NCBI GenBank assembly: GCA_041687695.1
Contig: JAWLBL010000034.1
Coordinates: 60,480 to 81,538, forward strand
Direction of reading: 5' to 3'
Source of the DNA: Myxococcota bacterium
Lineage (GTDB): Bacteria; Myxococcota_A; UBA9042; PHBI01; JAWLBL01
Length of the DNA stretch: 21,059 nt
The position numbers were made by a program, and so were the translations under genes. Within the stretch, counting starts at the first letter, position 1, and each line of letters begins with the position of its first letter. The notes under the pieces were generated by a model, which was given only the letters and a program-made list of their open reading frames with translations, was not told the DNA's origin and ran no database searches. Shown piece by piece: positions 8 to 21,059 of the stretch.

Positions 8-115
8 GCTGCGCCGGGCTTGGCGGCCCGATCCCGGCGGCAAGCCGCCGGGGCCGGGGCTCCAGCAAGCTGGAGCACTCCAAGGCCGCCTCCGCCGGCA
101 TCCACACGACGCATC
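8..115. mobile_element. Partial/degenerate copy A of the MITE-like element (right part only)
   Basis: 8-102 matches 241-335 with 6 mismatches in 95 nt. It ends in a degenerate right TIR (ACACGACGCATC) followed by TTCCA-GCCGGC (116-126), the same type of right flank as copy B. Left part is diverged or outside the window. Confidence 0.6.
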
Positions 116-434
116 TTCCAGCCGGCCCGGCTCGGCATCGGTTTCAGCATCACCGGCCTGGGACCGCCGGCTTCCAGAGGGTGTCGCAAAAGCCCAACCG
201 GAGTGCTCCACCTTGGTGGAGCCCCCATCCGGCGCAGCTTGCTGCGCCGGGTTTGGCGGCCAGATCCCGGCGGCAAGCCGCCGGGGCCGGGGCTCCGGCA
301 AGCCGGAGCACTCCATGGCCGCCTCAGCCGGCATCATTACGACACCCTCTTCCATCCGGCCGGAGCCGGCGTCGTTCTCGGCTTCGACCGCCTCTGGACC
401 GCCGGCTTCCAGCCGGCCGGAACCGGCATCGCCC
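116..434 (+). repeat. Tandem array of ~56-57-bp REP-like units (core GGACC-GCCGGC-TTCCA-GCCGGC), interrupted by the MITE
   Basis: Intact core at 396-417. Core split by the insertion at 161-176/350-360. Right half-core at 116-126. Tails 127-160, 361-395 and 418-434 resemble each other. Confidence 0.7.
177..349. mobile_element. 173-bp non-autonomous MITE-like element (copy B)
   Basis: Terminal inverted repeats GAGGGTGTCGCAA (177-189) and TTACGACACCCTC (337-349), 12/13 match. Flanked by direct TTCCA (172-176 and 350-354). Four internal hairpins at 205-222, 229-250, 266-285 and 292-309. No credible coding capacity. Confidence 0.75.
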
Positions 435-467: not shown

Positions 468-1538
468 TCAGGCCGGCAGCACGCCGCGTCCGCGCAGGAA
501 GGCGACCAGGGTGTCGAAGGCGGCCGCGCGCCCGTGCTGGACGAGGTGCGAGCCCGGAAAGACGGCCAGGTGCGCCCCGCCGAAGTGGGCGGCGAGGCGC
601 TCGGAGTAGCGCAGCGGGGTGACGCGGTCGCGCTGCCCGGCGATGACCAGGACGCGGTCGCTGGCGATGGCCGGGGGCCGCGCCTCGGGGCTGGTCGGGG
701 CGAAGGCGTCGATGAAGGCGTCGCGAGCCAGCCCGGCCTCGGCGGCGCGCGCCAGGGCCTCGGTGCCGAAGGCGTGATCCCACATCAGCTCGGCCACCGA
801 CGGGAAGGCGATCATCGGCACGGCGAAGTCCAGCGTGGGCTCGACCGTGGCGAGCAGGGCCGACGTGAAGCCGCCCAGGCTCATGCCGGCGACGCCGACG
901 GACGGGGCGCCGCGATCGCGCAGGGCGCGGACCAGGGCGCGCAGATCGCTGGTCGCCTGGGCGAAGCCCTCGTTGGCGCGGATGGGGTTGGTCGACGGGA
1001 ACATGGGCGTCCAGCGCCCCCGGGGCAGGCGGCGCGCGTGGAACGGCAGGTTGACCAGGACCACGTCCAGCCCCTGTCGATACAGCCACCGGGCGCGCAT
1101 CGCGACCTCTTCGATGGCATAGTGACCCGCGCCCCACCCGTGCAGGGCGATGAGGGTCGGGGCGGGGCGCCAGTGGCGGAACCAACGACCGTGACAGATC
1201 GCGTTCTCGGGGCAGCGGCCGAGGAGGGTTGCGTGGCTGGGTTCGAGCGAGCGCCAGACGCTGGGCCAGGTCAGGTCGACGACCTCGCCCTCGGGCAGGT
1301 CACGCACGGGGCGCTGGGTCAGGACCGCGGCCGGGGGCGCGGGGAACAGGCGGCCATCGCGCGCGGCCTCGGGGTACAGCCGGCGGGCGGCCTCGATGCG
1401 GCTCGCGAGCGAGGCGCGGGCGGCGCGGCGGCCGGCGGTGGGGCTGCGGAACGTGGCGCGGACGAACAGCGCGTCGAGGCCCTCGCCGAAGGCGGCGGTG
1501 GCGGCGCTGAGCGGGAGCATGGGGTCGAAGGTCGGCAT
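468..1538 (-). CDS. Alpha/beta-fold hydrolase (serine esterase/lipase-like; resembles ABHD18/DUF2048-type proteins)
   Basis: 356 aa. Oxyanion region ALHGWG, nucleophile elbow GMSLGG, candidate Asp in AGQRDRVTP, candidate His in FPGSHL. Confidence 0.85.
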   Translation of the reverse strand: MPTFDPMLPLSAATAAFGEGLDALFVRATFRSPTAGRRAARASLASRIEAARRLYPEAARDGRLFPAPPAAVLTQRPVRDLPEGEVVDLTWPSVWRSLEPSHATLLGRCPENAICHGRWFRHWRPAPTLIALHGWGAGHYAIEEVAMRARWLYRQGLDVVLVNLPFHARRLPRGRWTPMFPSTNPIRANEGFAQATSDLRALVRALRDRGAPSVGVAGMSLGGFTSALLATVEPTLDFAVPMIAFPSVAELMWDHAFGTEALARAAEAGLARDAFIDAFAPTSPEARPPAIASDRVLVIAGQRDRVTPLRYSERLAAHFGGAHLAVFPGSHLVQHGRAAAFDTLVAFLRGRGVLPA

Positions 1539-18145: not shown

Positions 18146-18281
18146 CTGGAGCGCCCTCGCTCGCGAGGGCTCGTCGGATCAGCGCCGCTCGCGGCGCTCC
18201 GAACTCCACCCAACCTCAGCGCCGCCCCTGGAGTGCCCTCGCTCGCGAGGGCTCGTCGGATCAGCGCCGCTCGCGGCGCTC
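18146..18281 (+). repeat. Two direct 54-bp copies of a GGAGY-tagged double-hairpin REP-like element
   Basis: 18146-18199 and 18228-18281 differ at 1 nt (GGAGC/GGAGT). Each has GCCCTCGC-TC-GCGAGGGC + 10 nt + AGCGCCGC-TC-GCGGCGCT. Located between convergent stops. Confidence 0.9.
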
Positions 18282-20612: not shown

Positions 20613-20751
20613 CCTTTGCGTCCGCCCACCCGACGACTCCCAGGGCCCCGCCGCGCCCGGATACTGACGGACTCCTCCGCCCGAAGCGAGCCCATTCACC
20701 GAACGAACGCTCGCCCGCCGCCCGCACCGCCCCTCCCCCCGACTCGCCCCC

Positions 20752-21059
20752 CTTACGCCGCCGAAGGCGGCTTTCGGAGTGCTCGGCCCATGGCCGAGCT
20801 TTGCGCCGGCCACGCCGGCGCGTCCAACCCTCGCCCGCGCACCTCCCCCCGCCTCCGCCGCTTACGCCGCCGAAGGCGGCTTTCGGAGTGCTCGGCCCAT
20901 GGCCGAGCTTTGCGCCGGCCAAGCCGGCGCGTACCCACCCTCGAACCCGCACCTCCCCCAGACCCCACCCCTTACGCCGCCGAAGGCGGCTTTCGGAGTG
21001 CTCGGCCCATGGCCGAGCTTTGCGCCGGCCAAGCCGGCGCGTACCCACCCTCGAACCCG
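20752..21059 (+). repeat. Tandem ~110-bp triple-hairpin repeat, at least 3 units, runs off the window
   Basis: Units start at 20752, 20861 and 20971. First 60 nt identical. Hairpins GCCGCC-GAA-GGCGGC, GGAGT+GCTCGGCC-CAT-GGCCGAGC and GCGCCGGC-CA[A/C]-GCCGGCGC, then a variable C-rich linker. Confidence 0.95.

Follow-up and report, generated by a model that had tools for sequence, protein, structure and literature searches.

A gene-less element with IS1182-type ends and a REP doublet as cargo in the hairpin loops of a second REP family in a Myxococcota genome

According to reviews from Siguier's group, some IS1182-family elements reportedly duplicate the loop only. Within this family, IS1272 and TnSha1 insert into hairpin-forming inverted repeats in both orientations (PMC5678879, PMC4923244), and in the accessible portions of these accounts IS1272 deletes the target hairpin, leaves no duplication and uses terminators without a consensus. 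A loop-only duplication was drawn as a possible pathway by Wan et al. (their Fig 13c), who observe in the accessible text that palindrome targeting is brought up by Siguier et al. with no data given (PMC5678879). The gene-less MITEPye1 of Paracoccus yeei has IS1182-type TIRs, short direct repeats of 4 bp, an intergenic location and a strong fold, at 1-3 copies per chromosome, and the available part of its description reports neither a REP target nor REP cargo (PMC11578231).

Several other elements are known to target REPs, namely ISPsy8 (IS3), ISRm22 (IS4), IS1397 and ISPpu9/MITEPpu9 (IS110) (PMC1525189, PMC12288879, PMC3184786). These use one point of the REP, and ISPsy8 and ISRm22 use the hairpin axis with a short duplication (3 bp and 6 bp, respectively); MITEPpu9, the non-autonomous companion of a REP-targeting IS, carries an sRNA gene (PMC12288879). 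In the available portions of this literature, the families known to target REPs are IS3, IS110, IS4, IS256 and IS5. REPINs are described in the accessible text as distinct from MITEs, as copied only by RAYT, and as decaying after RAYT loss (bioRxiv 10.1101/2021.07.10.451892). REP dimers within longer palindromes occur in Anabaena variabilis and Halothiobacillus neapolitanus, with no IS family or target assigned in the parts of the report consulted (PMC3733652).

Here we describe a MITE from a Myxococcota bacterium that joins features of these systems, and report its ends, copy number, target, 5-bp duplication and two orientations, together with its REP-type cargo, the conservation of that cargo, and the fact that full elements sharing these ends belong to IS1182. 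As far as the available accounts go, it resembles IS1272 in family, in hairpin targets and in the use of both orientations, but it keeps the stem, duplicates the 5-base loop, uses one REP family and is non-autonomous; stem-loop-replacing transposition of the IS1272 type is ruled out, as both arms are kept and the loop is duplicated. It shares with MITEPye1 the lack of genes, IS1182-type TIRs, short direct repeats, intergenic placement and strong fold, and with the REP-targeting IS a single REP point, here used by IS1182-type ends. Unlike MITEPpu9, it carries a REPIN-like interior, and the likeness to REPINs (two inverted REPs, about 115 bp, conserved REPs and a more variable spacer) is set off by the position of most copies between DDE-type ends. 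Published examples already exist of IS1182 elements that target hairpins, of REP-targeting IS and of IS1182 MITEs; the present case stands out by how many insertions it comprises and by a cargo measured to be better conserved than the ends. A search of the main texts of openly accessible papers found no published description of an IS1182 MITE carrying a REPIN into REP loops.

The element and its array in the window

The window is the whole 21,059-nucleotide stretch of DNA that was analysed, contig C34:60480-81538 of assembly G000 (7.97 Mb, 73% GC). Its first part has the following features.

8..115 (+): upstream copy 1, a truncated older MITE piece (right 108 bp) whose right TIR has decayed; 88% identity to copy 2
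116..127 (+): target of copy 1, loop copy TTCCA and right arm of the REP
161..171 (+): interrupted target REP-A, foot GGACC and left arm GCCGGC
172..176 (+): left-hand copy of the duplicated 5-bp target, the hairpin loop TTCCA
177..349 (+): MITE copy 2, 173 bp, a young copy; 98-99% identical to copies on five other contigs
177..189 (+): left TIR, IS1182-type; agrees with the left end of full element L120 at 15 of its first 16 bases
200..314 (no strand assigned): cargo, a REPIN-like REP doublet, with REP-B hairpins at 200-222 (+) and 292-314 (-) and inner hairpins at 232-247 and 267-284
337..349 (-): right TIR
350..361 (+): right target duplication TTCCA (350-354) and REP-A right arm with one substitution
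396..418 (+): empty REP-A unit with its loop at 407-411; the genome has 133 such empty copies
468..1538 (-): neighbouring alpha/beta-hydrolase gene, given for context; the array lies just beyond its 3' end

The original prediction had placed 13-bp TIRs and flanking TTCCA at 177-349 and held that excision would restore a hairpin like the empty unit nearby. Both statements stand: the TIRs agree at 12 of 13 bases, TTCCA lies at 172-176 and at 350-354, and removal of 177-349 with one TTCCA yields a unit that differs from 396-418 in a single right-arm base. At 173 bp the element is too short for a transposase gene, and it is short, TIR-bounded and gene-less, as a MITE is. The predicted upstream copy at 8-115 is real, its decayed TIR being followed by TTCCA and a right arm, but only its right 108 bp are present; its left end and left duplication are out of sight because the window begins right after a 100-N scaffold gap and the junction of copy 1, with about 98 bp, is repeated before that gap. 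Just upstream of the window, at C34:60000-60479, rearranged MITE pieces lie on both sides of the gap, and the assembly there is probably unreliable. That earlier account of a nested element in a REP loop was sound as far as it went, but it overlooked the REPIN in the interior. Further REP arrays occur in the window at 18150-18280 and 20745-21059, one of the type that flanks the RAYT on C26 and three units of the type that flanks the RAYT on C54.

Genome-wide copies and their target

A BLAST of the MITE against the genome gave 172 non-overlapping matches, 88 of them near full length; a threshold of at least 84% identity left 87 near-full copies in 63 clusters, with both ends intact in 67 (51 clusters). 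This genome-wide check, set beforehand, bore out the predicted target: 61 of the 67 intact copies (46 of 51 loci) occupy a REP-A loop, 37 of them (28 clusters) in one orientation and 24 (18 clusters) in the other. Of the 67, 46 have an exact 5-bp duplication, 17 a 5-bp duplication with one mismatch and 4 none, and no copy among them shows a duplication of 4 bp or of 6-9 bp. Among the six intact copies outside REP-A, two have an exact duplication of their own (CCATA, TACTT), two have one with a single mismatch and two have none; CCATA sits between short inverted arms.

REP-A has the properties by which REPs are recognized: a short foot and a GC-rich hairpin, more than 100 copies, and arrays with variable spacers. 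It also flanks a Y1 (RAYT-like) gene on C22, with one copy before the gene and five or six after it as an inverted array; the only NCBIfam match of that gene is the RAYT model NF047646, at 73.9 bits and below the cut-off of 80. Four RAYTs elsewhere in the genome exceed the cut-off, three with their own REP types nearby and one, on C47, with no REP within its short flank. The RAYT-type genes number five (C15, C22, C26, C47 and C54), alongside six longer Y1 genes without REP flanks (C40, C48, C53, C59 and C61 being listed).

With 133 empty copies and 90 half-sites that run into a TIR, REP-A is filled to about 40%. The genome offers 14,617 GGC-N5-GCC sites, about 1.3% of which are REP-A, and 5,822 perfect 6-bp stems around five bases, REP-A accounting for about 110; set against this share, 46 of 51 loci gives p about 1e-62, a value that is overstated, the background including genic sites where insertions would be lost. 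Of the remaining hairpins with five central bases, two that are also abundant (69 and 66 copies) are used at 3 loci only, one base off centre and by copies with decayed ends, and for this reason stem and central sequence both appear to matter. The prediction of a non-autonomous, structure-targeted element therefore survives in its loop targeting and duplication, but not as targeting by structure alone.

In five copies (C2:51388, C3 end, C18:53600, C27:119772, C30:1) the first TIR bases have changed to REP-arm sequence; the change ruins the TIR, rebuilds a complete REP hairpin next to the element and resembles quasi-palindrome template switching. Two contig starts, C25:201 and C34:142, carry the same copy with the same flanks and may be a single locus that was assembled twice. 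In a small, hand-picked set of 10 families, MITE lengths showed no helical phasing (Rayleigh p 0.36-0.83, periods 10.3-10.6). Forty relatives contained no full match to the element, none of the genomes offered a close relative for comparing empty with filled loci, and REP-B was found in 0 of 106 genomes of the class; the target-plus-end pattern is present in 4 of 400 other genomes of the phylum, and a search of plasmids gave one 37% match.

The REP doublet and the IS1182-type ends

REP-B consists of a GGAGT foot, an 8-bp stem and a 2-base loop, and in the element two inverted REP-B hairpins enclose two more hairpins. The doublet has the properties of a REPIN, with two inverted REPs less than about 130 bp apart (200-222 and 292-314) that vary by 1-2% against 6.9% for the inner linkers, and judging from its sequence the interior would be a third layer, a REPIN of a REP family other than that of the target. 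REPs of the same build (same foot, stem length and loop length, with a different stem sequence) flank the RAYT on C26 (104 bits), and no RAYT flanked by REP-B itself was found in the genome. The 135 copies of the core comprise 80 flanked by TIRs on both sides, 48 with a single TIR and 7 with none, and by a loose match allowing up to 3 mismatches a TIR lies just upstream of 223 of the 274 REP-B hairpins; free REP-B tandem arrays without TIRs occur on C3 and C31.

The cargo is better conserved than the ends. With one copy taken from each of 63 loci, variation is 1.6% in stems, 1.2% in loops and 1.0% in feet, whereas the TIRs reach 10.8%, the inner linkers 6.9% and the outer linkers 12.5%; positions that vary in at least two copies make up 26 of 26 in the TIRs and 10 of 80 in the hairpins. 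The copies were chosen by BLAST reach to both ends, and any bias would run toward intact TIRs. The four cargo hairpins contain 23 compensatory and 13 broken pair cells, while broken cells number 91 of 630 in the TIRs and 38 of 306 in the separated target arms; the copies are interrelated, and neither these pair counts nor the variation counts are independent. Self-correction of hairpins can account for the conservation of stems, and less easily for that of loops.

REP-type hairpins likewise occur in the other interiors that this genome has between the same ends (217-218, 168 and 135 bp). These interiors belong to mini-elements with the same ends, the same loop and other REP-type cargo at C32:13928-14145, C45:457-673, C10:144721-144888 and C23:8750-8884. 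In a subfamily represented by C1:171046-171217 and C1:259028-259200, ends and target are the same and the orientation of the cargo relative to the ends is reversed.

The ends themselves had been guessed to be IS5/IS1182-like, a choice that resolves to IS1182: three elements in other DNA have the same ends and encode transposases that pass the IS1182 model NF033551 (cut-off 270 bits), L043 at 387 bits, L120 at 279 and L148 at 283. L043 (1,941 bp) has no matching duplication, L120 starts in a REP half near-identical to REP-A and has its right end beyond the contig, and L148, a complete 1,802-bp IS1182 from the same class as G000, lies in a 7-bp stem whose 4-base loop is duplicated, so that two of the three (L120 and L148) sit at a similar hairpin tip. 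Close relatives of these transposases with different ends (L147, L149-L152) are not in such hairpins. Other genomes hold mini-elements of 131-254 bp with the same ends, unrelated interiors and duplicated loops: TTCCA (L019, L030, L023, L096, L108), TGCCA (L185) and GTCCC (L159, which adjoins a RAYT-like gene). By eye, the interiors of L096 and L108 contain REP-type hairpins. L118 and L096, from one metagenome, have the same ends and a REP cargo closely like their own target, and the cargo of L118 has a TTCCA loop, which would allow self-nesting.

The contig scans demanded a TTCCA-like loop and give no measure of loop preference, whereas L148 and L159 came from protein searches free of that bias. 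A first strict scan returned 0 loci and two looser scans 13 and 86, mostly chance matches in genes, with a transposase at 1 of the 13 and 1 of the 86. The search for a transposase-bearing relative with the same TIRs thus succeeded in other DNA but not at home: no IS1182 transposase, whole or remnant, was found in the own assembly with PF05598, PF13751, PF01609 and L043, or with the three transposases by tblastn at E<=1. That assembly is in 63 contigs with 29 gaps, and 34 of its 126 contig ends lie inside these repeats; the helper has probably been lost or left unassembled. A 164-bp element at C26:72619-72782 has related but distinct IS1182-like ends and a CTAGC duplication.

Movement, targeting and alternative readings

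Taken together, it is very probable that the locus holds a 173-bp gene-less element with IS1182 ends in a REP-A loop, with the loop duplicated and a REP-B doublet inside, likely moved in trans by a DDE transposase of the IS1182 family; this last step we infer from the ends. Such a transposase would bind the two ends and, directed by the GC-rich stem and by the bases that adjoin the loop, join them at the two loop edges with a stagger of 5 bases; repair would copy the loop into the duplication. Tandem duplication of filled units may then enlarge the arrays. Once an element is inserted, its ends would drift, whereas the REP/RAYT system or host selection would probably keep the cargo hairpins under constraint, and in this way the MITE would have multiplied the REP-B family. 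For the first capture of the cargo we can offer guesses only: a template switch during gap repair, or else a RAYT insertion into an IS with a deletion afterwards.

Loop duplications could also be inherited, had REP and MITE been joined by one insertion and then spread whole as a compound unit through RAYT activity, gene conversion and tandem duplication. Elsewhere in this genome filled units have indeed been duplicated, with 10 of 24 adjacent copy pairs at least 99% identical and at least one of their flanks at least 94% identical, and the helper missing from the assembly and a cargo better conserved than its TIRs would fit such spread as well. The window pair, which the original prediction allowed might be a duplicated filled unit, does not look like one: copy 1 and copy 2 are 88% identical over 108 bp, their spacers are 61% identical, copy 2 ranks 49th of 87 among the relatives of copy 1, and its closest kin, at 98-99%, are on five other contigs, on which grounds copy 2 is better read as a young, separate insertion. 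In a tree of 67 copies, which is short and weakly supported (8 of 60 branches well supported), the two orientations are interleaved, with 19 changes needed against 22.1 in shuffles and at least 5 forced by well-supported branches; off-target copies carry different 5-bp duplications, and within this genome the same loop also houses three further interiors that have these ends. Compound-unit spread as the sole route is thereby largely refuted, and we regard it as highly improbable. Very unlikely, too, is an interior conserved as a small structured RNA gene or regulatory RNA, like ssr9 in MITEPpu9. The element does fold much more strongly than shuffled sequences (z -7.5, 0 of 200), and compensatory pair cells outnumber broken ones in its four hairpins, but it matches no Rfam family (best E 0.7), its hairpins are opposed on opposite strands with a REP-type foot in a build that also flanks RAYT genes, and free tandem arrays of them exist.

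The preferred reading, independent insertion of an IS1182-type MITE, leaves room for two views of its separate steps. At the targeting step, the transposase might read REP-A as plain duplex, a short palindrome around TTCCA, with no hairpin extruded. DDE enzymes often read duplex sequence, REP-A takes nearly all loci from a minor share of perfect stems, the other abundant REP hairpins are hardly used, and loops elsewhere are often TTCCA-like, though the scans that collected them demanded that. We nevertheless consider duplex reading rather unlikely: the loops in use also include CCATA, GTCCC and one of 4 bases that is duplicated as 4 bp, stems differ between genomes with their pairing kept, only about 1.3% of GGC-N5-GCC sites are REP-A, and IS1272 of the same family is described in the accessible accounts as reading hairpins without a sequence consensus (PMC4923244, PMC5678879). 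As for the cargo, the element may, tentatively, be a hybrid, a REPIN that took IS1182 ends as a second, faster engine, with the DDE enzyme delivering it into loops of the other REP family and RAYT or host selection keeping its hairpins and their loops roughly ten times better conserved than the transposon ends. If true, this would account for REP-B being the commonest REP of its build in the genome despite the lack of a RAYT flanked by REP-B, and for the repeated occurrence of REP cargo in IS1182 mini-elements of unrelated genomes.

With 61 copies at 46 loci in one genome, the element provides an unusually large natural data set for loop-only duplication, which stands only as a model in the available parts of the IS1182 papers, and L120, L148 and the target variants are named transposases and targets that can be tested. 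Integration at harmless sites could be a use for an enzyme whose insertions go into 5-base hairpin tips between genes. If the reading of the cargo is true, REP families would spread by way of a DDE transposase rather than their own RAYT, which would bear on REP copy numbers and on population models of REPINs.
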